From positions 64,413-128,412 of the IMG/VR virus record IMGVR_UViG_3300020045_005677: a stretch of 64,000 nt of DNA, one strand, 5' to 3'. Source of the DNA: a virus. Shown here piece after piece: positions 17,095-62,842 of this stretch. How positions within the stretch are numbered: the first letter of the stretch is position 1; every line of letters starts with the position of its first letter. The translations under genes were made by a program, and so were the position numbers. Below the pieces are notes generated by a model. It made no database searches, was not told where the DNA came from, and worked only from the letters and a program-made list of their open reading frames with translations.

Positions 17095-18030
17095 ATGAAT
17101 GTAATTAAATTTGGAACAGAGCCAATTAACTCTAAGCTAAACCTATTAGGAGATGATATAGGTTTTATAAAGCAATACGATTTTAGTACTGCTAATGTAG
17201 ATGATTCACATAGGATACATGCAGTAACTAGTGTAGCCAGTATATGTTATAACACTGAACATAAATCAATAGGTTCTAAGAGTCTATATGATAGACTAGG
17301 ATTAGAATCTGGTGGCGTGCCATCATCTAGTTTTGAATTTATTCCTGTATTGATTAGTGAATTTGAATTTGAACAAGAGACTAGAAAGTCTACTGTAATT
17401 AGTTTAATAGATTTAAAGATAGCTAAACATTCTATACTTGTTAAAAGTAAAGAAGGCTTAAGATATAGATTAACTAATTATAGAGCTGTAGTTCATGATT
17501 ATGAATTAACAAATGGTGAAGTAGACTTTAGAAAACATTACAATCATAAAGAGTATGAAATTAAAATCATTAGAGAAAACTTCTTTGTATTCTTAGCTAA
17601 GATAGATTTATCTACTAGAGCCCAACTAGTAAGACATAGAATGTTAAATTTTCAAGAGAGAAGTAGAAGATATGTATCTGGTAAGAAATTACCATTTGAT
17701 TTCTATTTAGAAGATAAAGTAAAAGCTACTAAACTTAAATTCTACGATATAGATTTAGAATCTCCATCTGTAGATAAAAACTTAAATACATTAAATGTAG
17801 ATGCAGAGAGATTAGCTAAAATGTCTGTAGACTTATATAATCAAGCATTAGAAGATGGTGTTAAACCTCAAGCTGCTAGAAGATTAATATTACAAGCTAT
17901 GTATACAGATATATGGATTGGATTTAACTCAGAGACATTAGCTGAATTCCTAGAGAGAAGAACTGAAGCAGATGCACAAATAGAGATTAGAAATTTAGCA
18001 TTAGGTATTCAAGAGCTAGTAGCTAGTTAG
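17095..18030 (+). CDS. thyX: FAD-dependent thymidylate synthase
   Basis: RHR-x7-SRR signature (QLVRHRMLNFQERSRRY), PQAARRLILQA, FLERRT..DAQIEIRNLA. Confidence 0.92.
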   Translation: MNVIKFGTEPINSKLNLLGDDIGFIKQYDFSTANVDDSHRIHAVTSVASICYNTEHKSIGSKSLYDRLGLESGGVPSSSFEFIPVLISEFEFEQETRKSTVISLIDLKIAKHSILVKSKEGLRYRLTNYRAVVHDYELTNGEVDFRKHYNHKEYEIKIIRENFFVFLAKIDLSTRAQLVRHRMLNFQERSRRYVSGKKLPFDFYLEDKVKATKLKFYDIDLESPSVDKNLNTLNVDAERLAKMSVDLYNQALEDGVKPQAARRLILQAMYTDIWIGFNSETLAEFLERRTEADAQIEIRNLALGIQELVAS

Positions 18031-18060
18031 TTATATTATGAAACCTTTAAATATTGAATG

Positions 18061-18088
18061 TACTGTTATATAGAAATATATAACAGTA
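18061..18088 (+). terminator. Hairpin, 12-bp stem with GAAA loop
   Basis: After thyX, followed by TGTTTTATTTT. Confidence 0.7.
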
Positions 18089-18127
18089 TGTTTTATTTTG
18101 TCCATCTAAAATTAAATAGGAGTATAA

Positions 18128-18835
18128 ATGTTTAAATTGGATAATTATATTATTAGTCAGTCTATGATATTAATATCTAAAGACTTAGACAATAGCATTA
18201 AGAATATTATAACTTGTCAAGGTAGAAATAATGTTAGAGTATTTGGAGAAGCTAATAAACTATTTACAGTAGACTTAGCTAAGAAAGTAATAATTGAATC
18301 TTATAAAACATCTGATTTTAATAAGTATGTAATATTAGTAGGCACATCATTTAGAGAAGAAGCTCAGAATGCTCTTTTAAAGCTACTAGAAGAACAAACT
18401 AAAAATCATATATTCATTATCTTGGTAAACAATAATAATGTCTTATTGCCTACTGTATGTAGTCGTATGCCAGTATATTATATTTCTGAAATTAAGAAAG
18501 TTAAAAAAGATAAAGAAGTAATAGATTATTTAAATCTAAATGAAAAGATGATGATTAATTTATTATTAAAACATAAGAATATTAAAAAGGATGAAGTAAA
18601 AGAAACTATTAGTAGTATTATAATTGCAGATGGTATAAATAATAGACAGAGCTTTAATAGTAAAGTATTAAATAGTTTTACTACACTAATTAGATTATTA
18701 GATTTAAACTCTAGACCCTTAAATATCTTTACTGTATTTTTAACTAACTTAAATAAAGTAAACAAGAAGAGAAATAGTAATGAAAAAAATAATGATAATG
18801 TTGTTAATAGTATTTGGAATAGTAGTAAGTATTAA
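18128..18835 (+). CDS. holB: DNA polymerase III delta'-like clamp-loader subunit, short Campylobacterota type
   Basis: EAQNALLKLLEE, LLPTVCSRM (SRC/Arg-finger motif) and C-terminal LLDLNSRPLNI; no Zn module, like epsilonproteobacterial delta'. Confidence 0.8.
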   Translation: MFKLDNYIISQSMILISKDLDNSIKNIITCQGRNNVRVFGEANKLFTVDLAKKVIIESYKTSDFNKYVILVGTSFREEAQNALLKLLEEQTKNHIFIILVNNNNVLLPTVCSRMPVYYISEIKKVKKDKEVIDYLNLNEKMMINLLLKHKNIKKDEVKETISSIIIADGINNRQSFNSKVLNSFTTLIRLLDLNSRPLNIFTVFLTNLNKVNKKRNSNEKNNDNVVNSIWNSSKY

Positions 18836-18878
18836 TATAGCTATGACTAGCATTATGCTTATAGATGCAGTAAAGTAA
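18780..18878 (+). CDS. Candidate 32-aa single-pass membrane peptide
   Basis: MKKIMIMLLIVFGIVVSINIAMTSIMLIDAVK; overlaps the 3' end of the holB-like gene; weak RBS. Confidence 0.35.
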   Translation: MKKIMIMLLIVFGIVVSINIAMTSIMLIDAVK

Positions 18879-18897
18879 ATAGACGGCAAAGTTAATG

Positions 18898-18930: not shown

Positions 18931-18987
18931 ATACTCTTTGTGCCTCCGTGTCAGAACAGTAGGTCTTTATTGTTTAGAATATAATAA

Positions 18988-20656: not shown

Positions 20657-20658
20657 TC

Positions 20659-29815: not shown

Positions 29816-31312
29816 ATGAGTAGAAGAGATAGCAATATAGAAGTAGCCGTAACGAAAATGTATTGGAATAAAGTGTATGGAAATGAGTTTAAACCTGTAC
29901 ATAGAAGAAATATAGAATTAGATTCTAGTTACTCTGCTGTACATGGAATAATTGATGCTTTAGATTATAAGAAAGTAAATAAATTGTCAATTGGAGATTT
30001 AACACATACTCCAGATTTGATTACATTATCAGATGCACCTAATGCTGATGCTGTTAATATTAGAGGTGGTTGGAATACAGATAGATTTGCATTTATGATG
30101 GAAATCACAATGATAGAGAGAGGTAATGTAAATAATATTTACTTATCTGGATATACGGATGCCGATGACCTATTTGGGTTGTGGACATCTAGTGCTAAAG
30201 ATGCTACATTAAATAGTGATATAAAGTTAATCTTTAACGATTGTCTAATTACACAAACAGTAAGACAAGGAAATAGAGATGTAACTAGAATTGTAGACAG
30301 TTATGAGATTATTCCTACTCCAGATAAAGAAGAGAAAAGAATGGGAGCATCTACACTAAGACCTACAGATGTATTTGCTACTATTCAGGGACAAGAAAGA
30401 TTTAGTACTGACAACTTTGATGTAGATGGTGTAACTCTAGTAGATACTAGAACACAAAATCATGGTGGTAAGATATCTAGATATTCAAATTCATCTCTAG
30501 ATAATCATTTAGTATCTGTATCTAATCTATATATGCAAGCTAGTAGTGAAGCATATACAGGAAATGACTTAGAAGTATATGACGATTTAGTATATTCTAC
30601 TAGAGAACCTGATTTAGTAAATGCAGTAAAACTATTCGATTTAATATTTCAAGAGACTGGAGAGATAGTAGAAGACTCTATTAGACTAGGAGATTTATTA
30701 TCTGTATGTCCCGAGAGATGTAAAGCTCAAGAAGACTTTGTAATCAATGATAAACCTAGACAAGATAGAGATACTGAGATTAGAGCATTAGCTAGTCAGC
30801 ATAGAGAGTTTAAAGCATTGACCACTTTAGATTCAGAGGGTACAGATGTAATTGGTGTAGATGTAAAGTTAGCTCAATTAGCATTAGCTGAAACAGTAGC
30901 ATTGATGAATATGTATAAGATTACACAATTAGCATTAACAGCTACTAATCTTAGTAAAGATTATAATAATAGACCATTAATCTTTATAGCAAACAGTAAT
31001 AGTTTAATTAGTAATGAAGATATTACTACTTATCTATTAGGTCAATTTGAAGAGAGATTTTTAAATACAGTATTTAATAAAATTAGTTATGCAGGACAAA
31101 TATCTGTTAACTTATCTTTATATATTGGATTTAATACAGAAAAGATAGAAATATCTATAAATGGAGATGCGCCATTAGTATTAGCATTGCCTAAATTTAT
31201 GAGTAGTAATTTTAGTTGTGTAGTTGGTGGTGATAGTGATTTAAAACAATTAAGTAGGGGATACAAAGACTTATTTAATACAATATCTGAAAATACAGGA
31301 GCAAGTAAATGA
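29816..31312 (+). CDS. Conserved core protein, putative phiKZ gp69 (PicA/Imp1 nuclear import factor) homolog
   Basis: 498 aa; GWNTDRFAFMME motif; position between gp68-like and gp70-like genes. Confidence 0.45.
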   Translation: MSRRDSNIEVAVTKMYWNKVYGNEFKPVHRRNIELDSSYSAVHGIIDALDYKKVNKLSIGDLTHTPDLITLSDAPNADAVNIRGGWNTDRFAFMMEITMIERGNVNNIYLSGYTDADDLFGLWTSSAKDATLNSDIKLIFNDCLITQTVRQGNRDVTRIVDSYEIIPTPDKEEKRMGASTLRPTDVFATIQGQERFSTDNFDVDGVTLVDTRTQNHGGKISRYSNSSLDNHLVSVSNLYMQASSEAYTGNDLEVYDDLVYSTREPDLVNAVKLFDLIFQETGEIVEDSIRLGDLLSVCPERCKAQEDFVINDKPRQDRDTEIRALASQHREFKALTTLDSEGTDVIGVDVKLAQLALAETVALMNMYKITQLALTATNLSKDYNNRPLIFIANSNSLISNEDITTYLLGQFEERFLNTVFNKISYAGQISVNLSLYIGFNTEKIEISINGDAPLVLALPKFMSSNFSCVVGGDSDLKQLSRGYKDLFNTISENTGASK

Positions 31313-32493
31313 AATTAGTAGATTTTTATAATAAAGCTTTAATCTCTGTAGGTATGCAATCTACAGAGGAAGGTAATATTGTATATACAAATGATGAAAG
31401 CAAGCTAGTAACAGCCAGCAAGAAACAAATGGTGATGCCAATTAAACAACAAATCAATATCATTACTGAGGATAAAATATTATTTAATCCATTGCAAGAA
31501 GATATGATTAAAGGTATGAACTTATCTACTGCTAAAGTAAAAGTATCTGCCGATAGAATGTTAGCTAATGCATTTAACTTAGTAATAGAATCATTAGCAT
31601 TGTTAGCTAAGGATATAGAACTACAAAACAAAGCTAACCTAGAGTTAAATAAATTTACTGGTGAATTAAATAAATTAAGAAAACAAAACATGAAAGAGAT
31701 TGTAGATGCTCCATTTGTCACAATGATATCTAAGGTGCATTCAGAATCTATTAAAAAGACTTCAATGTTTGGAAGCATAGCTATTAAGATAGATAAAAAT
31801 AAAGCTATAGAGGGTGAGAAGTTTAGTAAGGTTGGTTCTTTAATATTACCAATTTATGAAGACTTATTATTAGACTCTACTAAGATTTACGATATTGAGT
31901 TAAAGAGAAAGAAAGATGCTGATATTTATAAAACAATGGTAGAGTTTATTATTGGTAAGAATGATAATGATGAAGTAGCATTATCTAATTATACTACTGG
32001 AAGCAACTCTTTATCTTCTCCATCATTTATTGTAATCTATAGAGTATACTTTAAACTAGCTACTAGATTAAATAAGTTAATAGATGGTTTAAAATTTATT
32101 AATGAAGATATAGTAAAAGCTAAAATTAATTTAGCATTATCTCTAGATGATTTATCATTGATTCCAGAGTTTGATTCTGAGTTAAGAATGATTCCAAACT
32201 TAAATAAGATTCAACAGATGAATATGGAGCCTATTAGAGCTAAAGAAACATTATTGCCTGCTAGAGATTCAATATTAAATAGAACAACAGCTACAGCTGA
32301 TTATAGACCATCTAGTGCAGCTGCATTAATGAATAGATTATCTGGTAGCAATAACAATACTGTAGCTCCTAGAGAAACATTAGTAGTAAATAGACCATCT
32401 AATATTTTAGCTAATATTAGAGATATAGATGATGATAGCTATAGACCAATGAGAAGAGAAAGAACTCTAGGTAATATTAGAGACTTAAGATAA
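31309..32493 (+). CDS. Conserved core protein, phiKZ gp70-like
   Basis: 394 aa; ATGA overlap; KILFNPLQE motif; low-complexity C-terminus. Confidence 0.45.
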   Translation: MKLVDFYNKALISVGMQSTEEGNIVYTNDESKLVTASKKQMVMPIKQQINIITEDKILFNPLQEDMIKGMNLSTAKVKVSADRMLANAFNLVIESLALLAKDIELQNKANLELNKFTGELNKLRKQNMKEIVDAPFVTMISKVHSESIKKTSMFGSIAIKIDKNKAIEGEKFSKVGSLILPIYEDLLLDSTKIYDIELKRKKDADIYKTMVEFIIGKNDNDEVALSNYTTGSNSLSSPSFIVIYRVYFKLATRLNKLIDGLKFINEDIVKAKINLALSLDDLSLIPEFDSELRMIPNLNKIQQMNMEPIRAKETLLPARDSILNRTTATADYRPSSAAALMNRLSGSNNNTVAPRETLVVNRPSNILANIRDIDDDSYRPMRRERTLGNIRDLR

Positions 32494-32496: not shown

Positions 32497-32527
32497 ATAC
32501 ACTATAGAGATAATCTCTATAGTGTAT
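32497..32527 (+). terminator. Hairpin, 14-bp stem
   Basis: ATACACTATAGAGA-TAA-TCTCTATAGTGTAT. Confidence 0.65.
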
Positions 32528-32563
32528 ATTATATTTAAAATTTTATTTAAAAGAGGATTTAAG

Positions 32564-33172
32564 ATGGGAATTAAACAAGGTTTTTATTTAGTATTAGAAG
32601 GAATAGATGGATGTGGTAAAACTAGAATGGCCACTGCTATAGTACATGCTTTAAAATTAAGAAGTAATAAAGCGATAATCCATTTAAGAGAACCTACTTA
32701 TTCTAATAATGGTAAAGCAGCTAGAGAAATATTAATGAGTAATCCTGATGGATTAACACCACGACAAGAAGAACAAACTGCAGAGTTAATATTACTAGAT
32801 AGAATGGAAAATATATCTAATGTAGTTGAGCACTTAAGAAATGATTGTATTATAATTCAAGAGAGAAATGCTTTAACTGCTATAGCTTATAATAAGTGTA
32901 GTGATTATCATATTGTTAATAAAATTAATAAGTTAGCATTAAAGCCAGATGTATTAGTATTCCTAGATACTAGTGTAGAAGTAGCTATGAATAGATTAAT
33001 AGCTAGTGGACACAAATTAGATGCTTATGAAAATAAAGAGAGAATGACTGAGAATAGAGATAGATATCTAGACTTAGAAGATGACTATATAGATTTAGTG
33101 TTACCAAATAATGATTTAGGTGATTTTGAATTAGCCTTAGAGACTATAGTAAAAATGATACTATTAAAATAG
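32564..33172 (+). CDS. tmk: Thymidylate kinase
   Basis: LEGIDGCGKT P-loop, REP, DR motif and PDVLVFLD; start reassigned to the ATG at 32564 after AGAGGA. Confidence 0.92.
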   Translation: MGIKQGFYLVLEGIDGCGKTRMATAIVHALKLRSNKAIIHLREPTYSNNGKAAREILMSNPDGLTPRQEEQTAELILLDRMENISNVVEHLRNDCIIIQERNALTAIAYNKCSDYHIVNKINKLALKPDVLVFLDTSVEVAMNRLIASGHKLDAYENKERMTENRDRYLDLEDDYIDLVLPNNDLGDFELALETIVKMILLK

Positions 33173-33398: not shown

Positions 33399-33725
33399 TT
33401 ATTCGTTAATTATATATTTATTATATACGCTTTGAAGACTCACTGCTCCATATATCTTTAAGCTTATTTTTTTTCCATTAAAATCGGTAGGACTCTTAAA
33501 TCCATTTAATCTCATTAATGGATACCAATATCTCTCTGGTAATTGATAGTATACAAACACTGCATGTAAATCAAACTCATTAGCACTAGCTATAGCTCCT
33601 GGCACATCTACTAATTCATATTCATATTGTTTTTTTATTTCTTCTAATATTAATTCCCATTTATTATTTATATCTAATGTAATTACTTCAGTTCCTGTTG
33701 AAATAAAATCTAATAAATTACTCAT
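33399..33725 (-). CDS. Small conserved phiKZ-like protein (LysM/tail-X-like helix)
   Basis: 108 aa, AGGAG RBS; YWYPLMRLNG...PTDF motif. Confidence 0.55.
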   Translation of the reverse strand: MSNLLDFISTGTEVITLDINNKWELILEEIKKQYEYELVDVPGAIASANEFDLHAVFVYYQLPERYWYPLMRLNGFKSPTDFNGKKISLKIYGAVSLQSVYNKYIINE

Positions 33726-33766
33726 AATGTTCTCCTGTAAAAATCTTACTAATTCTAACTAAATTC

Positions 33767-33789
33767 AAACACATATTATTAAATTAGTA
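33767..33789 (+). promoter_or_regulatory. Phage promoter motif, subtype A
   Basis: AAACACATATTATTAAATTAGTA before the RNAP gene. Confidence 0.75.
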
Positions 33790-33859
33790 CATCATTCTAA
33801 ACATTTTTCTAAAGCTAGAAATTTAGGTGACTGATAGTAAATTTAAAAGGAAATATTAT

Positions 33860-43775: not shown

Positions 43776-43800
43776 GATTATTTTCCTAGCTATATAGTAT
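43761..43800 (+). terminator. Hairpin, 17-bp stem (one G-U pair)
   Basis: Overlaps the 43775 stop; T-tract follows. Confidence 0.7.
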
Positions 43801-43827
43801 TTTTTATTTACTAAGGAATTTTAGATT

Positions 43828-44127
43828 ATGAAGAGTATTAAGTTAACTTTAAAACAAAATAGTATTACACCTACTTTTAGTTTAGATACTAGAGATACTA
43901 CAATAAGTGGAAACATAGAAGATTTAATATCTCTATCTGAAGAAGTAAAGAAACAACAAATGTTTTTAGTATGGAATCTATTATCTAAACCTATAGAGTT
44001 AGAGATAAGTCCTAGCAATTGGAATTATGAAGATAGTTTAAAGATAGTATTAAATTTTTATAATTTAAATGGAGAGATAATTAAAATAAAAGATAATGAT
44101 GAAGTATCATTTAGATTATTTGTATAG
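43828..44127 (+). CDS. Hypothetical protein
   Basis: 99 aa, AAGGA RBS, flanked by hairpins. Confidence 0.6.
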   Translation: MKSIKLTLKQNSITPTFSLDTRDTTISGNIEDLISLSEEVKKQQMFLVWNLLSKPIELEISPSNWNYEDSLKIVLNFYNLNGEIIKIKDNDEVSFRLFV

Positions 44128-44165
44128 CTATATACTACATAGATTAGTATCTATGTAGTATATAG
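44128..44165 (+). terminator. Hairpin, perfect 17-bp stem (TATACTACATA family)
   Basis: CTATATACTACATAGAT-TAGT-ATCTATGTAGTATATAG. Confidence 0.7.
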
Positions 44166-44202
44166 TATATTTGTCGTCGATAATGTATTTAAAATTAATT
44201 AG

Positions 44203-44225
44203 AAGCACATATTATAAAGATAGTA
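44203..44225 (+). promoter_or_regulatory. Phage promoter motif, subtype B variant
   Basis: AAGCACATATTATAAAGATAGTA. Confidence 0.65.
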
Positions 44226-44306
44226 ACGTTACTGGTTAATTGCTAAAAGATGGTAATTAAATATTTAGGGATACACTGTACCCCCTATTCCGAGGAGGAA
44301 TTAAAA

Positions 44307-45050
44307 ATGCAAATAGATATTATAAATAAAAAGTATACTACAATTGATGATAGATTTAAAGTTATCTTAAATCAAAATGAAATAGATGATATACTTAATA
44401 ATAATCCTATTGTTGTAAGCAATGGGTATAAGAATAGCTTTACTGGAGATAAAAATACTTATTTTCATGGTCTCCTTTTAGATAAAAGAAACAATAATTA
44501 TATAGTAGAAATGACCTGGGATATAGAAGGCAATCCTGTTATTGCTAGTATTGCTACTGTTGCTAAAACTAAATTAGGAATTAATGAATTTACTTCACTT
44601 CCTGGTCCTGCTTCATTAGGATTAAGATTAATAGAGATTATGCCTATTAGTGCACCATTTGAGGAAATAGTGAAAGAGCTAGATAATAAAATGCTTAATA
44701 CTATTAAAATAATTAATACAAACAGAATCCATATAAGAGAGTATATAGAAAACTATAACGAAAATGTTGGTATAAATATGGATATTGCCTATAAAGAAGC
44801 TAGAGCTAATTTAATTAAAACTAAAATTATTGAGCTAGAAAAAAATACTGACATCATTGCTGACATACATAAACAATATATCAATCTGGCTGAGCAAAAT
44901 GAAGACAAAGAACTATTGTTACCTCTATGTAAAGATAATTTAAATTTATATCTAGAGAACAAAGAAAGGTTTAACAAAGAAGTGCTACACAAAGCAAGAA
45001 CAATGATAGCTTTTGTATTGTATGGAAAATCTTCATTTGGACTAGAGTAA
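44307..45050 (+). CDS. Accessory paralog 1 of the KIDVNK family
   Basis: Start reassigned to the ATG at 44307 (GAGGAGG RBS): MQIDIINKKYTT...FHGLLL...MTWDIEGNPV plus coiled coil. Confidence 0.6.
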   Translation: MQIDIINKKYTTIDDRFKVILNQNEIDDILNNNPIVVSNGYKNSFTGDKNTYFHGLLLDKRNNNYIVEMTWDIEGNPVIASIATVAKTKLGINEFTSLPGPASLGLRLIEIMPISAPFEEIVKELDNKMLNTIKIINTNRIHIREYIENYNENVGINMDIAYKEARANLIKTKIIELEKNTDIIADIHKQYINLAEQNEDKELLLPLCKDNLNLYLENKERFNKEVLHKARTMIAFVLYGKSSFGLE

Positions 45051-45079
45051 AACAAATAAATTTAAATAAAGGAAAAGCT

Positions 45080-47042: not shown

Positions 47043-48641
47043 TTAATTAAACTCTAATATTCCTAGTAAGCCTTTAATCTCATTATTTATTTCTTTCTCA
47101 CTATTTGTATCCATACTCTCTTCTTCACCTATATCATCTGGTATAGGTTCTCCATTAGTAGGAAATGGTAATATCATAACTTTATCTTCAGACTTCATTA
47201 CTTTACTACCTTTATGTTTTCCTTTACCTACGGCTAAATAATCTTTACCATTCATACTGTATTTATAGGAGTACATTTCTAAATCCATCTCTTGAATTAG
47301 TTTTTTACTACCATCGTAAAATCCTTTACTCATTACCTTGTTTAAAAATACATCTCCAGTTAAATTTTCTCTAGCTATCGTTTGTGCATCAGGAGATAAT
47401 TGATGAGCACTAATAAATGAACATTTTCTTTTAGCAAAAAAGTTTCTTACTCTTCTAAATAAATCTCTTAAGTCACTACCCATTACTCCATTAGATACAC
47501 AACCTACAGTAGGAATTAATGATAAGTAATCTAGTATTACAGATTGTAATTCATATCCAGCTTTTTCATAAGTCTCTATTAGAGTAAAGAATGATTGAAA
47601 ACTCCAATCACTAGGGTCAACTCTAATAAATTTAACTTTAAATCCAGTAGCTTGTAATCTATCTTTTACATATGCTGCCATCTCTTCTTTAGTTACACTA
47701 TTTAAATCAGCTTTTACTTTATTATCAGTTAGATACATTTGTCTATATAAGAATTCGAATAATATATCTAAATCATCTTCTAAAGATACATATAATAATA
47801 ATGGTATTTTAGTAGGGTCAGTTAGTACTGGTTTATTATATCTAGCTATACCTACTAATGATGTAGCTAACCATCCTGACTTATAACTATGTGCTAAAGC
47901 ATTCCATATTACAAACTCTGGATTTTTATATCCACCAGTAGTTAAAAAGTTAATAGCTTGTATACCTATTTTAAATTTAAAGTTTTCAGCTTCATTAGTT
48001 TCTTTTACAGTTTGAAATATATTAGCTACATTTGTTAGATTGTCTAAGTCTATTTCATTTACAATAGCTAAATCTGTTTTCTGAATACTTTTCTTTAATC
48101 TGGTAGCATCTTCTATTAACTTATCTAATAACTCATCAGCAGTTATTCCATTCTTTAATTTCTTATCTATATCGAACGTATACTCTTGTCCTAGCTTTCT
48201 AATATTAATTAAATGTAATATTCTATTTAACTCAGACTCTAATGCTTTAATTACTAATTCATTTTCATTGTCAGTCATCTCTTTAAATATATCAATAGCT
48301 ATATCTTTTCTTACACTAGTTTTCATTATGTCATTAATGTTTTGTTCTAGCACTTCTTTATTAATAGTTTCTTCATCTAGGTAATTTAAAACTAAATCTC
48401 TAATCTTTTCAGTAGCTTCACTTTCTCCACCTTCTACATTAAAACTATCTAATGGTTTATATACGGCTAATACTTTTTTAATAGTTTTAATAATATTTGT
48501 TTTATCTATATATCTATTATTATTAATCTGTTCATTATTTTTTTGTTGTATATTTAATCTATATAGTATTTGTAGTATCTTTAAAAATGTACTTAGTCTG
48601 CTCTTGTTGCTAGTTGTGCTAGTAGAAAAATCTATTGACAT
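47043..48641 (-). CDS. dnaB: DnaB-like replicative helicase (phiKZ gp118-like)
   Basis: Walker A variant ALAHSYKS, YVSLED, ILDYL, SAHQLS, GKHKG; divergent from gp119-like/MCP as in phiKZ. Confidence 0.85.
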   Translation of the reverse strand: MSIDFSTSTTSNKSRLSTFLKILQILYRLNIQQKNNEQINNNRYIDKTNIIKTIKKVLAVYKPLDSFNVEGGESEATEKIRDLVLNYLDEETINKEVLEQNINDIMKTSVRKDIAIDIFKEMTDNENELVIKALESELNRILHLINIRKLGQEYTFDIDKKLKNGITADELLDKLIEDATRLKKSIQKTDLAIVNEIDLDNLTNVANIFQTVKETNEAENFKFKIGIQAINFLTTGGYKNPEFVIWNALAHSYKSGWLATSLVGIARYNKPVLTDPTKIPLLLYVSLEDDLDILFEFLYRQMYLTDNKVKADLNSVTKEEMAAYVKDRLQATGFKVKFIRVDPSDWSFQSFFTLIETYEKAGYELQSVILDYLSLIPTVGCVSNGVMGSDLRDLFRRVRNFFAKRKCSFISAHQLSPDAQTIARENLTGDVFLNKVMSKGFYDGSKKLIQEMDLEMYSYKYSMNGKDYLAVGKGKHKGSKVMKSEDKVMILPFPTNGEPIPDDIGEEESMDTNSEKEINNEIKGLLGILEFN

Positions 48642-49526: not shown

Positions 49527-51731
49527 ATGTCAAAAAGAATCACACCTCTAGAGTTAGCTGCACTAGCTGCATCATTAATATCTAAAACAAAATTAATTGG
49601 TGCTAATAAAGAGATTGCTCCAAATGGAAATGCTAACCAAATGGTACAATCTGGATTAGAATCTGATTTTGGAGCTGTACCTAGTTGGGATGCAACTGAT
49701 GCTGTTACATTTCAAATGCATGCTCCTGTAGTGAAAGATGCATTAGCTGGATTAGAATCATTTGCTGCTAGTACTGTAATTGCTGCTAAGCTATATGTAG
49801 ATAGAGCTGCTTCTGCTAAAGATTATTCTCCTTTAGAGAGAATGACAAACACTTCAGAAGTTTCAAGAAGAAAAGGTGCTGTTAAATTAAATGCAGGTCA
49901 AGTTCAAGTAGCTGGTTTAGAATCTAGTGCAATTAGCTTAACTGCTGGTTTAGAAAACTTCTCTAATATTGAAGTAGATACATTTACAGCTTATTCAGCT
50001 GCTTATAATATTGCTGCTTCTAAACAATCTGAGTTTGCTGATATTTTCTTTAAACCAATTATGCAAGACCCGTTATCTGCTTCATTCGATTTAGAAGTAA
50101 ATGTTATTTCAACATTTGATAATGTTGTTGCTCCATTAGGTGCAAAACCATATTCTAAAAATATCAAAAGTTTAATTAAACAAATTTCTGATGGTACATC
50201 TCTTGTAAAAGAAGATTTAAGATTATACCCAATTGCTAGAACTGAAAATGCTGCACAATTAAATTTTGATTTAAAAAGAGATGTAACTGTAGCTGGTGGT
50301 GTAGTTGAAGAAGCTGCTCCTATTAAAGCTGGTATTAAAATTGGATTATTATCTGCTTGTGTTACTACTGCATTAGCTGCAACTGGTACTCAAGATTCTT
50401 CAGATTCATTATCTAGAGATATTGAAGTAGAAAAAATTTATATTTCTGTTACTAATGGAACAGATGCTGAATACATTGGATTACCATTAAATGTAAATAA
50501 CTCTAATAAGTTTGTAAGACAAGCTGTTGGTGAAGAATTAGATATGGGAATCAATACTGAGTTTGAATTTGCTAGAAGTATTAAAGATTTAAAAACTTTA
50601 GTTGCTACTCTTGTTCCAACTAATATCTTAGCTACGCTTAATGATAACTACACTATTGTATTTAATACAAGATTAAGTGGTTTAATTAATATTGGTACAG
50701 GTAATGGTTATTTATCTCCTGTAGTTGAATTAGCTAGAATCTATGATAACTTAGGTGCAGATGTAACTTCAGCTGTTATAACTGCTGTAACTGACATTAA
50801 AGCTATCTTCGGTGCTATCACTGTTGACAGTTATGATTTAAAATGTTTCAGACTTGATGACAACTTAAGACAAAAAGGTATGAGAGTTACTAGAACTTCT
50901 TATTATGTATCATACCCAATTGGTTATAACCAACCAATCCAAATTGATTCTCCTACAATCGAATATCCAGGTAGAGCTGGTGATTCAGGTCTAATTGAAG
51001 CTGTAAATATTTCTGGTATCCAAATGGACCAAACTGCAATCAGAAGTCTATTAGATTTTGCTGATATGTTATCATCTGTTGTTAATACTTCTGTTGTATT
51101 ACCTGATGAGCAATTGTATAAAATCTTAGGACCTGCTGCATGGTATGTAAGACCATCTATGAAAACTAAAGATGTAGCTGTTAAAGAAGTTACTTCTAAT
51201 GTTTCTAGTAAAGACTTTGTAGAAGATGTATCTTCTTCAATTTGTTCTGAAATTAGACAAATGATTGTAGATTTAGTTGCTGAATCTAAAATCAATGATG
51301 CATTAAAAATCCAATTAGGTAATGACACTGTAGGTGTATCTATTGGTATTCCAACAAGATTATCTGCATTTGTAGACAGAGAGTTAATTAAACTTCCTGA
51401 ATCTAAATACGATATCAAAATTGCTGCAGTAGATAACGATATGATGGATGATACTATCATCATTGGTATTTCTAAGAAAAATGATGGTGGAGATAAACCT
51501 TCTGTACTAGATAGAGGATTTATGGTATACTACCCAGATGTAGCTGGTAAAGCTAGCATCTATGAAAATGGAGCTACTAAAAATATCTTTATTTGTAGAC
51601 CAGGATTCCAACATATTAACAATATGCCTATCTTAGGTAAAATTGTAATAACTGGATTAACTACTGCTACTAAAGATATTATGGCTAGAGTTAGAAGATA
51701 TAATGCTGCTGGTGAAGTAGTTGCTTCATAA
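49527..51731 (+). CDS. Major capsid protein precursor (phiKZ gp120-like)
   Basis: 734 aa; propeptide with four GLE sites; AYNIAASKQSEFADIFF, size, biased codon usage and synteny. Confidence 0.88.
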   Translation: MSKRITPLELAALAASLISKTKLIGANKEIAPNGNANQMVQSGLESDFGAVPSWDATDAVTFQMHAPVVKDALAGLESFAASTVIAAKLYVDRAASAKDYSPLERMTNTSEVSRRKGAVKLNAGQVQVAGLESSAISLTAGLENFSNIEVDTFTAYSAAYNIAASKQSEFADIFFKPIMQDPLSASFDLEVNVISTFDNVVAPLGAKPYSKNIKSLIKQISDGTSLVKEDLRLYPIARTENAAQLNFDLKRDVTVAGGVVEEAAPIKAGIKIGLLSACVTTALAATGTQDSSDSLSRDIEVEKIYISVTNGTDAEYIGLPLNVNNSNKFVRQAVGEELDMGINTEFEFARSIKDLKTLVATLVPTNILATLNDNYTIVFNTRLSGLINIGTGNGYLSPVVELARIYDNLGADVTSAVITAVTDIKAIFGAITVDSYDLKCFRLDDNLRQKGMRVTRTSYYVSYPIGYNQPIQIDSPTIEYPGRAGDSGLIEAVNISGIQMDQTAIRSLLDFADMLSSVVNTSVVLPDEQLYKILGPAAWYVRPSMKTKDVAVKEVTSNVSSKDFVEDVSSSICSEIRQMIVDLVAESKINDALKIQLGNDTVGVSIGIPTRLSAFVDRELIKLPESKYDIKIAAVDNDMMDDTIIIGISKKNDGGDKPSVLDRGFMVYYPDVAGKASIYENGATKNIFICRPGFQHINNMPILGKIVITGLTTATKDIMARVRRYNAAGEVVAS

Positions 51732-52402: not shown

Positions 52403-52825
52403 ATGAAAAGTATATTAATTATTGAAATTAATGATTATAAGCTAGAAGCAGTAGTAGATGATATTACATATATAGTAGATAGAGTATTTGATATTGATAC
52501 TATAGATAGATTTAATTATAAGATTACATCCAATACTACACTGTTTGGTAGTAAGTTGCTGCATAAGTTATTTGGAGTTAAAAGACCATTGGAAAACTTT
52601 ATTACAGAAGAGATATTATTAAACTTTGCTAAAGAAGACAAGTATCCTTTTACAGATATCGCTGTAAACATGATTAGAATGCTCTATATAGAGCTAGGAG
52701 TATTAAAGACAGGTGATTGTCTATTGTCAGTAATAAATCATTCAGACTTCAAGTATGCATTGGTATTTAGAGGTCCAAAAGAATGGCATGACAGAATGAT
52801 AAAAGAAATTAGAGAAGGTGAATAA
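52403..52825 (+). CDS. Accessory paralog (YPFTD family) 1
   Basis: YPFTD..MIRMLY..FRGPKEWHDR. Confidence 0.65.
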   Translation: MKSILIIEINDYKLEAVVDDITYIVDRVFDIDTIDRFNYKITSNTTLFGSKLLHKLFGVKRPLENFITEEILLNFAKEDKYPFTDIAVNMIRMLYIELGVLKTGDCLLSVINHSDFKYALVFRGPKEWHDRMIKEIREGE

Positions 52826-53239
52826 ATGGAAAGAGTAAAAGTATTAAAGTTAACAGATACTGAAATTGAAGTATTAATGAATAATAAGATATTTACTGTA
52901 ACTAAAAAAGATAAAAAAGAAGGTAACTATGGTTTTTATAGCGTTACTATAGATACTTCAAGGTTTAAAGGTATCCTTCTTAACTGGTTCGGAATGTATA
53001 AAATAAACAAGTATATTACTCCAGAACAGATACAGTTAGATTTCTTCGATGCAACTCCTAGTCGTTATCCATTTACGGATGAGAAGTTAATGATGATTAG
53101 AGCTTTATACTCTACTATAGGTGTAGATATGCCTCCAGTAATGACTAAAGAGTGGTTGTTAAAGAGAATTACATTTGGTGGTCCTAGAGAGTGGCTAGAT
53201 AGAATAAATGAAGAATTAGGTATTAAGAGTAAAGCATAA
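52826..53239 (+). CDS. Accessory paralog (YPFTD family) 2
   Basis: YPFTD..MIRALY..FGGPREWLDR. Confidence 0.65.
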   Translation: MERVKVLKLTDTEIEVLMNNKIFTVTKKDKKEGNYGFYSVTIDTSRFKGILLNWFGMYKINKYITPEQIQLDFFDATPSRYPFTDEKLMMIRALYSTIGVDMPPVMTKEWLLKRITFGGPREWLDRINEELGIKSKA

Positions 53240-53244
53240 TTAAA

Positions 53245-53276
53245 TAACAGTGGTATCCAATAGGGTACTGCTGTTA
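53245..53276 (+). terminator. Hairpin with G-U pairs
   Basis: TAACAGTGGTATCC/GGGTACTGCTGTTA; T-tract downstream. Confidence 0.6.
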
Positions 53277-53311
53277 ATATCTATTTTTTTCTTTTGTTTT
53301 AAACTAATCTC

Positions 53312-53334
53312 AAACACATATTATTAAATTAGTA
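53312..53334 (+). promoter_or_regulatory. Phage promoter motif, subtype A
   Basis: AAACACATATTATTAAATTAGTA. Confidence 0.75.
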
Positions 53335-53379
53335 TAACAAAACAAGAAGATAATTTAATTCAACCTGAGGAAAGATAAG

Positions 53380-54543
53380 ATGGAAAATGTGGTTCCTTAT
53401 AATCATAAAGATTCTATAATGTGGTTAGATAAATTTAAAGATGATGCAACTAGAAAAACTATGTATTCAGAAATATCAGATTTAAATCATTCTAGTCCAC
53501 AATATTCTATAGAAGCATATTCTACAGACAATAGAGCTAACTACTCTATCCAATTACAAAACAATATGTTACTACCAATTTATAGCAATGCTATGGCTAG
53601 TAAGTATTTAAGAAAATATTTAGACACTAAGGAGAGAAATAAAGAAAAAGTACATGATGGTAAATATTTAATTATAATAGAGAAACATTTAATTAAAGAT
53701 AATATCATTTATGATATATATAAAAACTATTACCATAGCATAATGAGTAAGTGTACTGCTAACACTAAAGAAAATTGTGATATCAATGCTGATGTAAAAG
53801 ATAGAATATCTAAAAATAGATTTCCTATAGAAATTAAGATATTACATTTAGTAGATATAGATATAGCATTCAAGAATAGTAAAGCTACTTATTTACCAGA
53901 CTTAAACATGATGGTATATAATAGTAATTTTGAAATTAATAATGAACATCCAATTGGTAGAGAATTTAATGTAGGTGATAGGCTACCTGCTTTTATATCT
54001 AAAGATAGAGGTGTGACACAATTCAATATCTCAGTAGTAGATAAAACAAATAGAAATAAAACATATTATACTAAAATCCTAGGAGAGACTGTAGATTTAA
54101 AATCTACTGATAGTATACACAAAGAAGAAGGAATAATTTTAGAGGAGTATTCAGAAGGATTAGAAAAAAGAAGATTAAAAATTAATATTGAAGATATTAG
54201 AGAGTATGGTATTTATCCTACTAGAACAGAATGCAATAATTCTGAATCTATAGATAAAGTAATAGAGTTAAAGAAAACAGAATTAGAATTAGATAAACTT
54301 AGATTTGGTAGTAAAAAGATGTCTATAGAATTTAATATGTTTTCTAAGAAATGTAATCTAGATGTAACTAGAAATAATATAGATATTTCTAAGATGAATA
54401 TAGATATAGTAAAGATGAGAAAAGATTTAGTAACTGATGATAAATTAGCAGATAAAAAGGGGAAGAGAGATGGTATAGATACAAGCAAAGGACTAATAGA
54501 TATTACTACTAGTATATTAAAGCTGACTGGTATGTTTTTCTAG
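53380..54543 (+). CDS. Hypothetical protein with C-terminal coiled coil
   Basis: 387 aa, immediately upstream of the RNAP beta N-terminal part. Confidence 0.6.
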   Translation: MENVVPYNHKDSIMWLDKFKDDATRKTMYSEISDLNHSSPQYSIEAYSTDNRANYSIQLQNNMLLPIYSNAMASKYLRKYLDTKERNKEKVHDGKYLIIIEKHLIKDNIIYDIYKNYYHSIMSKCTANTKENCDINADVKDRISKNRFPIEIKILHLVDIDIAFKNSKATYLPDLNMMVYNSNFEINNEHPIGREFNVGDRLPAFISKDRGVTQFNISVVDKTNRNKTYYTKILGETVDLKSTDSIHKEEGIILEEYSEGLEKRRLKINIEDIREYGIYPTRTECNNSESIDKVIELKKTELELDKLRFGSKKMSIEFNMFSKKCNLDVTRNNIDISKMNIDIVKMRKDLVTDDKLADKKGKRDGIDTSKGLIDITTSILKLTGMFF

Positions 54544-54598: not shown

Positions 54599-56320
54599 AT
54601 GCAGAATAATATATTCAAATCTATGGTGTTTGATACTATAGAAAAGTGGAATCCAGATGTAATGGGTGTACTGTCTACTAAAATGGTACCTGGTGTATTA
54701 CCATATTTAGATAAGATAATAACAAGTGCAATGTTATCCTTAAATAAAGGAATAGACTTAAGATATGAGGGTTATAAAGCATTAACTCCTGACGAGGAAT
54801 ATAATGTAGTTAGTGCTGGTGGTAAAAAGAGAATGGCTTTTGACTTTGGTAGAAGTGATGTGGCTATGACTAAGTTAATGTTTAGTTTCGAAGGAGAGAC
54901 TGTACCAGCTAGAAATCTATATATCCCATTTGTAGATGAAAATGGTATAATGCATATATCTGATACTAAATACCAATGTATTCCAGTATTATCAGATACA
55001 ATTGTATCTCCTACTTCTAAAGATATTTTTACTAGATTGCTTAGAGATAAAGTAACTTTTAAAAGAGAAGCTAGAAACATAATGTTTAATGGTAGAATAT
55101 TAAATAGTGAATTAATATATAAAGACCTATATAGAACAAACAATAGAGTAATTACAGATAATCTAGGTAAGATAGTAACTTCATCTCCTTTATATCTATT
55201 TGCTAGATATGGCTTTATAGAAACATTTACTACATATGCTGAAACTAAACCAATCATTAAGATAGGAGACTATAATAAAAATGATTATTTAGAGTATGAT
55301 GAATATACTACTAAAGGAGAAAAACCATGGTCTCTTAAAAATGATAACTATAAGCCTCATGATGTTAAAGTATTAATCCATAAAGATTTTTCTACAAATT
55401 ATGTAATACAAACATTTGTTACTGGATTTATATATACTCTAGATGTATTTCCAGAATATGCTAATGAACTAGTAGATATTATTGAATCTGATAATGTAGC
55501 TGATGAGATTAATTACTGGCGAATATTAATGGGAAAAATAATATTTAAAAATAGTTATAGTACAGAGAGAGGACTAGCTGATGTTAATAACCACTTTAAT
55601 TCATTAGAGTCGTATATTGACCCAATAGTAAAAGAGAAGCTACAAGAGAATGAATTATACATTAATACATTCTTCGACTTAATAGCATATGTATGTAAAG
55701 TATTTAAAGATATGACTACTAACTATAAGATAATATCTGCAGATGTTAGAAATAGATATGTAGATATACTCTATTATATTTTATACGATATATTCGAAGC
55801 ATTAATTAGAAGTCTATTTGAATTAAACAAAAAGAAAGATAGAAAGATTACTATTACTAAAGAAGTAGTAACCAAAGTGTTTGACTTAAAGTTTAGTAGT
55901 AGAAAGATATTTAATTTAAATAGTAAAGGTAGTTTAAATATTGCTTTAGTATTAGCAGAGAATGTATCTGATAACAAAATGAAGTTAGCTCAGAATTGTG
56001 AACTACAAGAAAATGGTAAAGGTGTAAATAGAGCCCCTAGAGTAAAGCATGGCGGTAATAATACTCATGCTACTGCTACTGGTGCAGTATTGGGTAGTAT
56101 TTATGGAGTAACTAAATCTACTCTAGATGAGAGGATGAAGATTAATCCATTCGTAAAACTATCTAGAACAGGTAGAATTCAATTAGACCCTAGAAAAGTA
56201 GAATATGTAAAGATAATGGATGGATTATTAAATGGTAATAACTTATTTAATGCTAAAGATATTAATCAATTATTTATAGCTGCTGCAGAAGAAGAGAAGA
56301 TTGAATTTAAAGATATTTAA
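54599..56320 (+). CDS. rpoB: Non-virion RNA polymerase beta subunit, N-terminal part (phiKZ gp123-like)
   Basis: LYIPFVDENGIMHISDTKYQCIPVLSD, FTRLLRDKVTF, SLESYID; 573 aa downstream of MCP as in phiKZ. Confidence 0.8.
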   Translation: MQNNIFKSMVFDTIEKWNPDVMGVLSTKMVPGVLPYLDKIITSAMLSLNKGIDLRYEGYKALTPDEEYNVVSAGGKKRMAFDFGRSDVAMTKLMFSFEGETVPARNLYIPFVDENGIMHISDTKYQCIPVLSDTIVSPTSKDIFTRLLRDKVTFKREARNIMFNGRILNSELIYKDLYRTNNRVITDNLGKIVTSSPLYLFARYGFIETFTTYAETKPIIKIGDYNKNDYLEYDEYTTKGEKPWSLKNDNYKPHDVKVLIHKDFSTNYVIQTFVTGFIYTLDVFPEYANELVDIIESDNVADEINYWRILMGKIIFKNSYSTERGLADVNNHFNSLESYIDPIVKEKLQENELYINTFFDLIAYVCKVFKDMTTNYKIISADVRNRYVDILYYILYDIFEALIRSLFELNKKKDRKITITKEVVTKVFDLKFSSRKIFNLNSKGSLNIALVLAENVSDNKMKLAQNCELQENGKGVNRAPRVKHGGNNTHATATGAVLGSIYGVTKSTLDERMKINPFVKLSRTGRIQLDPRKVEYVKIMDGLLNGNNLFNAKDINQLFIAAAEEEKIEFKDI

Positions 56321-60606: not shown

Positions 60607-61295
60607 TGACTACAATGGATTTTAATTTAAAAAAAGAAATTTTCGAAGAAATTGCGAGATTGGATTTTTCTTATCGGACATGGTTAGAGAGCAGAGGAAG
60701 TCGTCACGCAGATGTACTTCTTAAGCATATCAGCGAGGACTTATATGTTGGTCTTGAAGCTGATGAAGATGGATATGTATTACTTACTGATGAGAATAAT
60801 GCAGTAGTAATTCCTAGATTGGTTAGAAAAATTAAAGAGGATGGCTCAGATATTATTATTAGTGCTGAAATCCTACAGGCGTATTCTAGTTGCCGTATTA
60901 CTGTTAGAAAAAATGATTTTACTATTTATCATGGCGATATGTACAATATGCTAACAAGTATGATGAAAGAGACTACAGTATTGGATGGTTTTAATATACC
61001 AATGGATAAATCAGGATTAGTAGAATTAAGATGCTCTTTAATTTCTACTCCAGTAGCTTTAACATTAACTATTAAAAAAGAAGTGTTAAATTCTATAGAA
61101 GAAAAAATATTAAACAATATATTAAAAAAGATAAAACAATTTTGTAAATTGTATTCTTTTAAAATGGTAAAGAGTGATGTTGATAATGTAATTAATATTA
61201 TTTACGATAGTGAAGATATTAATATAATATCTAAAAATATAATAGATGAGTTTTTAAATAAACCAATTGAAGATATAGCACCAGGAGATGAATAA
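60603..61295 (+). CDS. Accessory protein, paralog of the 61551 ORF
   Basis: 230 aa; C-terminal LTLTIKKEVL...IKQFCK similar to LELTVLKETL...ISKFAE. Confidence 0.6.
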   Translation: MMTTMDFNLKKEIFEEIARLDFSYRTWLESRGSRHADVLLKHISEDLYVGLEADEDGYVLLTDENNAVVIPRLVRKIKEDGSDIIISAEILQAYSSCRITVRKNDFTIYHGDMYNMLTSMMKETTVLDGFNIPMDKSGLVELRCSLISTPVALTLTIKKEVLNSIEEKILNNILKKIKQFCKLYSFKMVKSDVDNVINIIYDSEDINIISKNIIDEFLNKPIEDIAPGDE

Positions 61296-61333
61296 TGACT
61301 ACAATTAATTTTAATTTAAAAGGAAAAAAATAA
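61295..61333 (+). CDS. 12-aa mini-ORF duplicating the start of the 60603 gene
   Basis: MTTINFNLKGKK versus MTTMDFNLKKE; AGGAG RBS; TAATG overlaps at both ends. Confidence 0.4.
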   Translation: MTTINFNLKGKK

Positions 61334-61545
61334 TGTATGATAATAGTTTTAGAGCGGAATTAAAGAATTTACCTCTTCGTCCTCCAAGAAAGAGAAAAAG
61401 AAAGAAAGTTGAATTAATGATTTCTCCAGAAGGTGAAAATAAAGGTTGTGGATGTGGGTCTGATAATTTTATGTCAGTAGTTTTTTTAATATTGCTTTTA
61501 GCAGTATCTATAACTGCAATATTAATAGTAATATTTAAAGGGTAA
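61333..61545 (+). CDS. Small tail-anchored membrane protein
   Basis: 70 aa; basic PPRKRKRKK, GCGCG, C-terminal hydrophobic helix. Confidence 0.6.
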   Translation: MYDNSFRAELKNLPLRPPRKRKRKKVELMISPEGENKGCGCGSDNFMSVVFLILLLAVSITAILIVIFKG

Positions 61546-61550
61546 AGGAA

Positions 61551-62273
61551 ATGTTAAACGAAACAGCAATAGATTTAATTATAGATGATACTATAAAAAA
61601 AATTAAAGAAATATTGCCAAGTGAAGTAGTATTTAAAAGTAGAACAGAAAAAGGATTTATGGCATTATACGATTCTATAGACAGCTTAATTTTTGAGTTC
61701 TTATTTATCAAGATAGTAGAAAATAAAATAGAAATGGATTTTAATATTAGTTTATTGTTTACAATGGAAAATCAAGATAAAAAATTCATTAATAAAAAAC
61801 TATTTAGAGAATCTATAGAAAAAAATAGTAATAATGATTTTTTATCTATCGACTATAAAGAATCTACTAATAAAAATATATATTATACTATTACACAAAA
61901 TCTAAATGATTACACAATATATCATTTAGATTTTTATAATAGGTTAAATAAATCTTTTAGTACTGCTACAGCCATGCAGCCATTTTCTTTTCTTATAGAT
62001 GAAACTAAATTAATTACATTAAGTTTTGATTTAATTAACAGAAAACACTGTTTAGAGCTAACGGTATTAAAAGAGACACTAACTGATTTTGAAAGCAAAA
62101 CTCTGTCATCAATCCTTTGTCATATATCTAAATTTGCTGAAGAGAGTAATTTAAAATTAGTTCAAAAACGAGATAGTTTAATAATATATATTCTTAGCAA
62201 AAAAGAACAATTAGTAACTATAGACTCTACTGGTGTAATAGTTAAGACACTAGCTAAAATAAATAAAGGATAA
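61551..62273 (+). CDS. Accessory protein, paralog of the 60603 ORF
   Basis: 240 aa; shared C-terminal segment. Confidence 0.6.
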   Translation: MLNETAIDLIIDDTIKKIKEILPSEVVFKSRTEKGFMALYDSIDSLIFEFLFIKIVENKIEMDFNISLLFTMENQDKKFINKKLFRESIEKNSNNDFLSIDYKESTNKNIYYTITQNLNDYTIYHLDFYNRLNKSFSTATAMQPFSFLIDETKLITLSFDLINRKHCLELTVLKETLTDFESKTLSSILCHISKFAEESNLKLVQKRDSLIIYILSKKEQLVTIDSTGVIVKTLAKINKG

Positions 62274-62278
62274 AAGAA

Positions 62279-62842
62279 ATGAGTAATGCTAAACAAAATA
62301 TGACTGGTAAGATTATATATATACATGATGATATTGTAGATATAAAGTTTTATGGATATATACCAAGTTCTAACGAAACTATTGATATATTATTAGCTAA
62401 TGGACACACTGAAAGAGCAAAGGTGGTAGTAACTGTACGGAATGTATGTAGGGTTAAAACTACTAATGCTAAAGATTTAATTATTGGACAAGAGTGTGTT
62501 GCTACTGGTAAAACTATTATAGAAGAGAAAGATATGGATGATGAGGATGATACTACTATAATTACAATTAAATGTGTAATTGAAAATATGAGAAATCAAG
62601 TAGATAGTCTAAATAAAAGCATAGATAGTTTAGAAAACATATTAAGAAGGAAAAGTAGTAAAGTAGAGAAAGAATTTACTATGGGTATGTTTAGAAAGAT
62701 GGGTGCTGAAAGAGGATTCGAGCATGCTAAACCATTTCCTTCTTTTGGTACAACGTATGCTGAAAAAATAGATGATGATAATCCTACTCTTAATTTAAAC
62801 CTTGGTCCAGATACTACAAAAGATGAAACAGGTAATAATTAA
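62279..62842 (+). CDS. Protein with F1 ATP synthase beta-subunit-like N-terminal beta-barrel fused to acidic linker and coiled coil
   Basis: aa 8-81 MTGKII..IVDIKFYGYIP..NETIDILLA..RVKT..L..GQECVATG match the recalled AtpD N-terminal pattern; no P-loop. Confidence 0.7.
   Translation: MSNAKQNMTGKIIYIHDDIVDIKFYGYIPSSNETIDILLANGHTERAKVVVTVRNVCRVKTTNAKDLIIGQECVATGKTIIEEKDMDDEDDTTIITIKCVIENMRNQVDSLNKSIDSLENILRRKSSKVEKEFTMGMFRKMGAERGFEHAKPFPSFGTTYAEKIDDDNPTLNLNLGPDTTKDETGNN

Follow-up and report, generated by a model that had tools for sequence, protein, structure and literature searches.

Host-type pieces of the clamp loader and of the F1 crown in a divergent phiKZ-like phage with a probable Campylobacterota host

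Background

When a phage appears to carry one part of a multi-subunit host machine, two questions follow: from which host was the part taken, and what does the phage do with it? Both are raised by a 64,000-nucleotide stretch of viral DNA (hereafter the window), which covers bases 64413-128412 of the 128,412-bp single contig held in IMG/VR as record IMGVR_UViG_3300020045_005677. Between window positions 17095 and 62842 lie a gene for a long-form flavin-dependent thymidylate synthase (thyX), a gene resembling holB, which encodes the delta' subunit of the DNA polymerase III (Pol III) clamp loader, and an open reading frame (ORF) containing a copy of the crown barrel of the F1 subunit AtpD. A preliminary description, made from the sequence alone, had assigned these genes to a phiKZ-like phage of Arcobacteraceae or other Campylobacterota, and had read the latter two as lone, altered subunits that act as dominant-negative mimics. 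The positions and families of all three genes are borne out by Pfam, alignment and phmmer searches.

We consider it fairly probable that the contig belongs to a divergent phiKZ-like phage of Campylobacterota, most likely of Arcobacteraceae, which carries host-type enzymes for the supply of deoxythymidine triphosphate (dTTP) together with interface pieces of two host machines. Judged by their sequences, three non-catalytic, interface-forming pieces of two essential machines are real, namely the delta' copy, the AtpD barrel and a barrel of AtpA found elsewhere on the contig, and each of them, where this could be checked, has been retained by two or more diverged phage lineages.

The clamp-loader subunit

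The product of the holB-like gene (Table 1) matches PF13177 at 44.3 bits, against a curated cut-off of 27 (expect value, E, 2.5e-11), and can be aligned end to end with delta' proteins of 200-206 amino acids (aa), in addition to which it bears an extra Asn/Lys-rich C-terminal tail of 25 residues. The P-loop is absent, there being no GxxGxGK[ST] motif in the sequence, and the QNALLK.LEE and LLPTV.SR motifs are kept; S112 and R113, which form the SR arginine finger, are invariant in all 18 aligned delta' sequences. Metagenomes yielded four further phage-type copies, of which one is 92% identical and the other three are 46% identical; all five copies, which represent three lineages, keep every one of the 25 family-invariant columns, S112 and R113 included. 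The same five copies all deviate from cellular delta' at two spots, where EEPP is replaced by EEQT or EESP and TVRSR by TVCSR or TVISR; the variants of the window copy are EEQT and TVCSR. A structural model made with AlphaFold2 (AF2) has a predicted local distance difference test score (pLDDT) of 72, with a confident core and less confident C-terminal helices. Its top Foldseek matches are all clamp-loader subunits (2gno, 1a5t, 8val_E and RFC subunits), at template modelling scores of only 0.35-0.42, and it also matches 3u60 and 3u61.

When one genome per prokaryote species was scanned and the 80 best matches were kept, Campylobacterota occupied the first 64 places, headed by two Arcobacteraceae metagenome-assembled genomes (MAGs) at 42% and 38% identity. 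A match was present in 120 of the 121 sampled Arcobacteraceae genomes (31-40% identity, E 1e-21 to 1e-34), and when loci were fetched and compared by tblastn, those of Arcobacteraceae and other Campylobacterales MAGs were strongest and those of Campylobacter and Helicobacter weaker. The best bacterial locus reads lysC-hobA-holB-folP-tyrA, and the match is truly chromosomal, because it lies inside the lysC-hobA-holB-folP operon; no other protein of this phage matched the fetched bacterial holB loci. We detected no comparable delta' gene in 50,697 GenBank phages, nor in IMG/VR.

A quick tree of 82 rows joined the phage clade to Arcobacteraceae with a Shimodaira-Hasegawa-like approximate likelihood ratio (SH-aLRT) support of 96, and a careful tree of 43 rows split phage and Campylobacterota sequences from Clostridia at 100/100. 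The holB-like gene may therefore be placed securely, as far as such comparisons reach, among genes of Campylobacterota type, and Arcobacteraceae are nearest to it by identity and distance. In a close relative of this phage, the longest contig given for thyX (83% identical) and that given for delta' (92%) both measure 48,990 bp; the two genes are probably on the same contig, so the pair would travel together.

The crown barrels

The product of the crown ORF (P0001) had only two matches when phmmer was run over 1.84 billion representative proteins. One is P0030, a 494-aa homologue that is 62% identical over the whole of P0001. The other, P0031 (E 1.1e-4), represents part of a genuine AtpD and is 41% identical to aa 8-78 of P0001. 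Because P0031 is 82% identical to the AtpD of an Arcobacteraceae MAG (G001), the best cellular match of P0001 in this collection is Arcobacteraceae-like. The barrel of P0001 is itself 37.7% identical to G001 AtpD (tblastn E 2e-11) and that of P0030 about 49-50%. In a complete 2.58-Mb genome of the same genus as G001 (G052), tblastn with P0001 leads to the start of atpD, and the barrel stretch also has a DNA-level match of 67% over ~190 nt to the genome G130. Alignment revealed a GQEC.ATG signature common to the phage copies, G001 and G052. A search of the PDB by sequence gave no relevant match to P0001, and a word-indexed search for homologues gave none.

The matches of P0030, which in every genome searched fall within the 80 codons at the start of atpD, weaken stepwise from G001 (1.4e-16) and Arcobacter sp. 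LC1 (1.8e-15) through Sulfurimonas (5e-13), Sulfurospirillum (1e-10), Helicobacter (5e-9) and Campylobacter (about 1e-8, with 1.3e-8 at the upper end of the Campylobacterota range) to Oscillospiraceae (4.5e-7) and a Clostridia MAG (0.003).

The AtpD homology of P0001 ends precisely at the barrel boundary, and unrelated sequence follows. Aligned with P0030, the C-terminal tail is almost invariant (KPFPSFGT.YAEKIDDD.PT...; window 62714-62839), more so than the barrel, and tail and coiled coil together are better conserved than the barrel. The tail seems to resemble a short binding motif. The next ORF overlaps the crown ORF by one base and looks translationally coupled to it, given that stop and start share the sequence TAATG. 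An Atlas search with this ORF gave no usable match, and BLASTP aligns it with aa 340-476 of P0030 at 27% identity (E 2e-6); the C-terminal part of P0030 carries two copies of the same domain, fused to the crown protein.

Outside the window, a 258-aa protein ends in the crown barrel of AtpA. Its best match in G052 falls where atpA begins, 2 kb upstream of the match of the AtpD barrel, and both halves of the alpha-beta barrel contact are present in the phage contig. The earlier view that the captured subunits stand without partners is correct for the window, and no catalytic partner was found in the 128 kb, where we detected neither a second protein of PF13177 (a family that covers DnaX-type subunits), nor a beta clamp, nor an F1 nucleotide-binding domain; it fails for the AtpD barrel in that the AtpA barrel lies in the other half of the contig.

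Evidence on the host

Eight of the 141 phage ORFs match G052, these being thyX, delta', both barrel proteins, the dUTPase, RuvC, the thymidylate kinase and an RNA polymerase subunit. When the whole 128-kb contig was compared by blastn with all 184 Arcobacteraceae species genomes, DNA-level similarity was confined to the genes that match G052 and to a 110-aa membrane protein with an N-terminal hydrophobic helix. The latter provides the strongest DNA-level link of the phage to any Arcobacteraceae genome: its homologue in one of them (G071) is 55% identical as protein and 69% over 288 nt, and belongs to the tail module of a P2-like prophage, where it has a DUF4376 protein on one side and the sheath and tube genes on the other. 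A 51% identical copy occurs in another genome (G173). The short high-identity blastn matches that we inspected all lie inside long ORFs, without flanking repeats, and a 39-nt match to contig C55 of G001 is due to chance.

ThyX, the thymidylate kinase and a dimeric dUTPase of Campylobacterota type together form a dTTP supply set. The dUTPase is most similar to that of G001 (42%), followed by Arcobacter LC1, Sulfurimonas and Campylobacter, and has DNA-level matches in dozens of Arcobacteraceae; no match was found in the one Oscillospiraceae genome tested, nor in the 50,697 GenBank phages. The matched parts of this protein are aa 11-161 and aa 285-355, leaving an apparent insertion of ~120-150 residues relative to the bacterial copies. 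The thymidylate kinase is 27% identical to its G052 counterpart.

The phage ThyX keeps the catalytic RHR...S..SRRY motif, which is invariant in the ThyX alignment, and is probably active. Its full-length identity to the long-form ThyX that some Arcobacteraceae encode in their chromosomes is 44-51%; such copies were detected in 19 of 121 sampled genomes by protein search and in 42 of 184 by DNA-level match. These bacterial enzymes measure 273-316 aa, occur in about a quarter of species genomes and are encoded in a bacterial context (purN, a transporter, a histidine kinase); the ThyX matches in Arcobacter LC1, Campylobacter infans and a Clostridia MAG are weak, at 22-26% identity. Long-form ThyX is also encoded by 22 IMG/VR contigs, some of them >180 kb, whose guanine-plus-cytosine (GC) content ranges from 22 to 43%; their copies are 37-44% identical to that of the phage, and two of the 22 have DnaB and the head protein in common with it. 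In the ThyX tree the phage copy falls in a clade of metagenome proteins (support 98), sister to the clade that holds all Arcobacteraceae copies. Long-form ThyX looks like a gene pool exchanged between large phages and Arcobacteraceae, in which transfer may have run in either direction.

For holB, the AtpD barrel and the dimeric dUTPase, Arcobacteraceae rank above other Campylobacterota and these above other phyla. Because five independent genes give the same ranking, we regard a host within Campylobacterota as very probable and one within Arcobacteraceae as likely, on the strength of gene comparisons. The host named in the preliminary description is thus upheld by the ranking of holB, the AtpD barrel and the dUTPase, together with the membrane protein shared with an Arcobacteraceae prophage. 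There is no support for G001 in particular as the host: it is top or near the top for the AtpD barrel, dUTPase and thyX, but holB scores alike across the family. A literature search returned no paper in which jumbo or chimallin-encoding phages are connected with Arcobacter or Campylobacterota.

Function of the captured pieces

Most probably these pieces act through the contacts they have inherited, and we infer their binding and effects on this basis. The delta' copy would occupy the delta' seat of the host DnaX3-delta complex, yielding a hybrid clamp loader, and the two barrels would be alpha-beta docking modules that pair with each other or with host F1 and bring along the conserved coiled coil, the conserved tail peptide and the downstream domain. 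Given that the arginine finger and all invariant delta' residues are kept, substitution in a hybrid clamp loader fits at least as well as poisoning, and the co-occurrence of alpha and beta barrels is also compatible with pairing between phage proteins. Inhibition is a doubtful outcome for delta', and for F1 a slightly more doubtful one. We think improbable the more far-reaching proposal that matched alpha and beta barrels dock on host F1 or block its assembly, and that delta' seizes or disables the clamp loader, in what would be the first nucleus-forming jumbo phage of Campylobacterota.

Several results weigh against a Campylobacterota phage armed with captured interface pieces. P0001 does not match Pfam PF02874 even at E 10, and its single-sequence AF2 model is poor (pLDDT 45), with strands in the right region and a helix at aa 105-143. 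The AtpA-barrel protein matches AtpA in four genomes at E 3e-8 to 3e-6 without a taxonomic gradient, and the unseen half of the genome might encode DnaX, HolA or a clamp. In the careful holB tree the phage clade comes out, weakly (47/42), as sister to all cellular Campylobacterota, a tree constrained to unite phage and Arcobacteraceae being only 0.5 log-likelihood units worse and not rejected (approximately unbiased test, p 0.44). The holB trees flag the phage rows for odd composition, and AT-rich composition could draw phage and Arcobacteraceae sequences together. The check by CRISPR (clustered regularly interspaced short palindromic repeat) spacers, which had been suggested for the host, did not support it: no match was found in the 184 Arcobacteraceae species genomes, with two candidates per genome scored. 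Finally, while holB and the AtpD barrel stand as Campylobacterota-like markers, the third marker originally put forward, thyX, has to be rejected, since its long form occurs in the 22 viral contigs of varied GC and the phage copy takes a sister-clade position.

One alternative is that the pieces are used within the phage only, with delta' in a phage clamp-loader-like complex, the barrels joining two phage proteins, and the host machines untouched. Phage clamp loaders do exist (T4 gp44/gp62), and the delta' model matches 3u60 and 3u61 as noted above. Moreover, a P-loop ATPase with AAA+-like features is encoded 7.4 kb downstream of the delta' gene; it has Walker A (GYKGMGKT) and Walker B (LVLDE) motifs and a weak match to phrog_168 'clamp loader' (1.5e-6), and a role as the phage partner of delta' is conceivable, if unproven. 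The presence of both alpha and beta barrels, the fusion of the P0030 barrel to two downstream-ORF domains as part of a larger phage protein, and the fact that half of the genome is unseen are likewise in keeping with an internal role. However, neither a clamp nor a further clamp-loader subunit was detected in the 128 kb, the ATPase has no SRC motif and no sequence match in the PDB, and the delta' copy still resembles a complete host delta' rather than a remodelled one. We consider a purely internal use rather unlikely.

A second alternative, advanced in the preliminary description, holds that delta' and the AtpD barrel are dominant-negative mimics, part of a general takeover strategy in which the host clamp loader and nascent F1 are put out of action. 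Both are indeed single, non-catalytic, interface-rich parts whose catalytic partners were not found in the 128 kb, two otherwise near-invariant delta' positions are altered in all phage copies, the barrel is cut exactly at its domain boundary with unrelated sequence after it, and host Pol III may be dispensable to a phage that itself encodes a polymerase and a helicase. Yet the arginine finger should be superfluous in a pure poison, whereas all 25 invariant columns are kept in three diverged lineages; the AtpA barrel in the same genome also fits pairing of phage proteins; the tail and coiled coil of the crown protein are conserved better than the barrel; and shutdown of ATP synthase would carry an energy cost to the phage. 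A general poisoning strategy is, in our judgement, unlikely.

That the host lies outside Campylobacterota, the similarities stemming from old or indirect gene transfer or from shared AT-rich composition, is agreeable with the missing spacer match, the circulation of thyX in many phages of varied GC, the moderate Arcobacteraceae identities (32-50%) and the composition warnings of the holB trees, but is very unlikely given that five independent genes rank alike, that the best AtpD match of the global phmmer search is 82% identical to an Arcobacteraceae MAG AtpD, that Campylobacter, which is similarly AT-rich, scores below Arcobacteraceae for the AtpD barrel and dUTPase, and that the short delta' architecture is that of delta' in Campylobacterota genomes.

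Relation to known systems

The delta' copy shares with the short HolB of Campylobacterota its length class, PF13177 core, lack of a P-loop, both motifs and C-terminal helices, and differs in adjoining thyX, in being 31-42% identical, in the EEQT and TVCSR changes and in its Asn/Lys-rich tail. T4 gp44/gp62 offers a phage-encoded clamp-loader subunit fold (Foldseek 3u60, 3u61), yet T4 has a full loader and clamp, whereas a delta'-type stator of cellular ancestry is all that we find of a loader here. As for the AtpD crown barrel (PF02874), ~73 residues can be aligned end to end with Arcobacteraceae AtpD, signature motifs included. Unlike AtpD, the phage protein has neither a nucleotide-binding nor a C-terminal domain and falls below Pfam detection; its barrel is followed instead by the acidic linker, coiled coil and conserved tail, and in P0030 is fused to a duplicated domain.

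Cyanophage PsbA (D1) and phage bS21 are single subunits of essential host machines that are thought to slot into the host complex, and to sustain or bias its function rather than poison it; they resemble the present case in that the phage encodes one part of a multi-subunit host machine and lacks the others. By binding DnaN or DnaI, certain staphylococcal phage proteins block host replication; these are small unrelated binders. Their aim is the same as that of the dominant-negative reading, with the difference that they are not captured copies of host subunits. A phage with one subunit of a host machine is consequently not new as an idea, but these particular machines are: to our knowledge the clamp loader and the F1 crown have not been described in such a role, and our literature search returned no paper on phage-borne crown barrels.

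The captured parts are unusual in being a clamp-loader stator and ring-forming F1 barrels, not enzymes, and they offer a testable case of a virus copying the assembly interfaces of host machines. Whichever of substitution, tethering and poisoning applies, these are small proteins that lend themselves to testing, and they might serve as probes of clamp-loader and F1 assembly in Campylobacterota. If the host assignment is true, phiKZ-like, probably nucleus-forming, phages would be extended to this phylum, which includes food-borne and emerging pathogens.

The contig and its other genes

The contig has no terminal repeats and a CheckV completeness of 48%, which for 128,412 bp implies a full genome of ~265 kb. 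The very low GC noted earlier was measured at 27.5% across the contig, and no transfer RNA genes were found within the window. The assignment to phiKZ-like phages is sustained by split RNA polymerase genes, a phiKZ-type head protein, sheath, tube, DnaB-like helicase and polymerase (Table 1). Split beta-type RNA polymerase subunits are a hallmark of these phages, and the RNA polymerase genes match phrog_3295, phrog_3015 and phrog_2962 at E 1e-127 to 5e-82; PHROG and Pfam profiles also identify SbcC/SbcD, a UvsX-like recombinase and RNase H. By tblastn the head protein matches 207 jumbo-phage records, at ≤25% identity to each; most of the isolates infect Gammaproteobacteria or Betaproteobacteria, and one is a Bacillus phage. 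No related phage record was found by megablast, and scans of IMG/VR with delta', the head protein and the crown protein recovered no close relative. The lineage is a distant one, in view of the low identity of the head protein and the lack of a related record by megablast, and the contig represents, by the completeness estimate, roughly one half of a jumbo phage genome that is phiKZ-like but very divergent.

Table 1 Features of the window and of the remainder of the contig (contig positions refer to the whole 128,412-bp sequence)
Feature	Window position	Contig position	Strand	Evidence
Long-form flavin-dependent ThyX, 311 aa	17095-18030		+	Pfam Thy1 2.7e-23
Short delta' (HolB) of Pol III clamp loader, 235 aa	18128-18835		+	PF13177
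P-loop/AAA+-like ATPase, 412 aa	26261-27499		+	phrog_2376 1.1e-45
Thymidylate kinase	32522-33172		+	Pfam Thymidylate_kin 5.3e-24
Split RNA polymerase beta-type subunits, two	33827-36100 and 36093-38117		+	phrog_3295 1e-127, phrog_3015 6.7e-118
DnaB-like replicative helicase	47043-48641		-	phrog_3213 5.3e-103
phiKZ-type major head protein	49527-51731		+	phrog_3231 9.4e-68
Phage polymerase	54599-56320		+	phrog_2943 'polymerase' 1.2e-82
Crown-barrel fusion protein P0001, 187 aa	62279-62842		+	phmmer
AtpD N-terminal crown beta-barrel copy, aa 8-80	62300-62518		+	AtpD alignment
Acidic linker, predicted long helix/coiled coil (about aa 95-143), C-terminal tail (aa 146-187)	62519-62839		+	
148-aa ORF, no assigned fold	62842-63288		+	
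258-aa protein ending in AtpA crown barrel		4405-5181 (outside window)		PF02874 E 0.001 (six-frame search)
Tail tube		7227-8087		PHROG/Pfam profiles
Tail sheath		8102-10243		phrog_3242 1e-150
110-aa membrane protein, N-terminal hydrophobic helix		13927-14259 (outside window)	-	G071 match
Dimeric all-alpha dUTPase, Campylobacterota type		31086-32198 (outside window)	+	PF08761
Further split RNA polymerase subunit		52739-54049		PHROG/Pfam profiles

With phiKZ-like phages (Chimalliviridae) the contig thus shares split RNA polymerases, the phiKZ-type head, sheath, tube, DnaB-like helicase, polymerase and SbcCD. It departs from them in a head protein that is at most 25% identical to that of any isolate, and in a host signal from Campylobacterota, where the matching isolates are mostly from Gamma- and Betaproteobacteria. 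A further difference is that the candidate for chimallin (contig 43105-45078) was matched neither by PHROG profiles nor, at E 1e-3, by tblastn among GenBank phages, and would have to be extremely divergent if it is indeed chimallin.

A stretch of ~1.9 kb (contig 33555-35470) is gene-free and yielded no Rfam matches at E 0.1. Within it, bases 34731-34817 gave short blastn matches to several Arcobacteraceae genomes, and these represent AT-rich low-complexity DNA.

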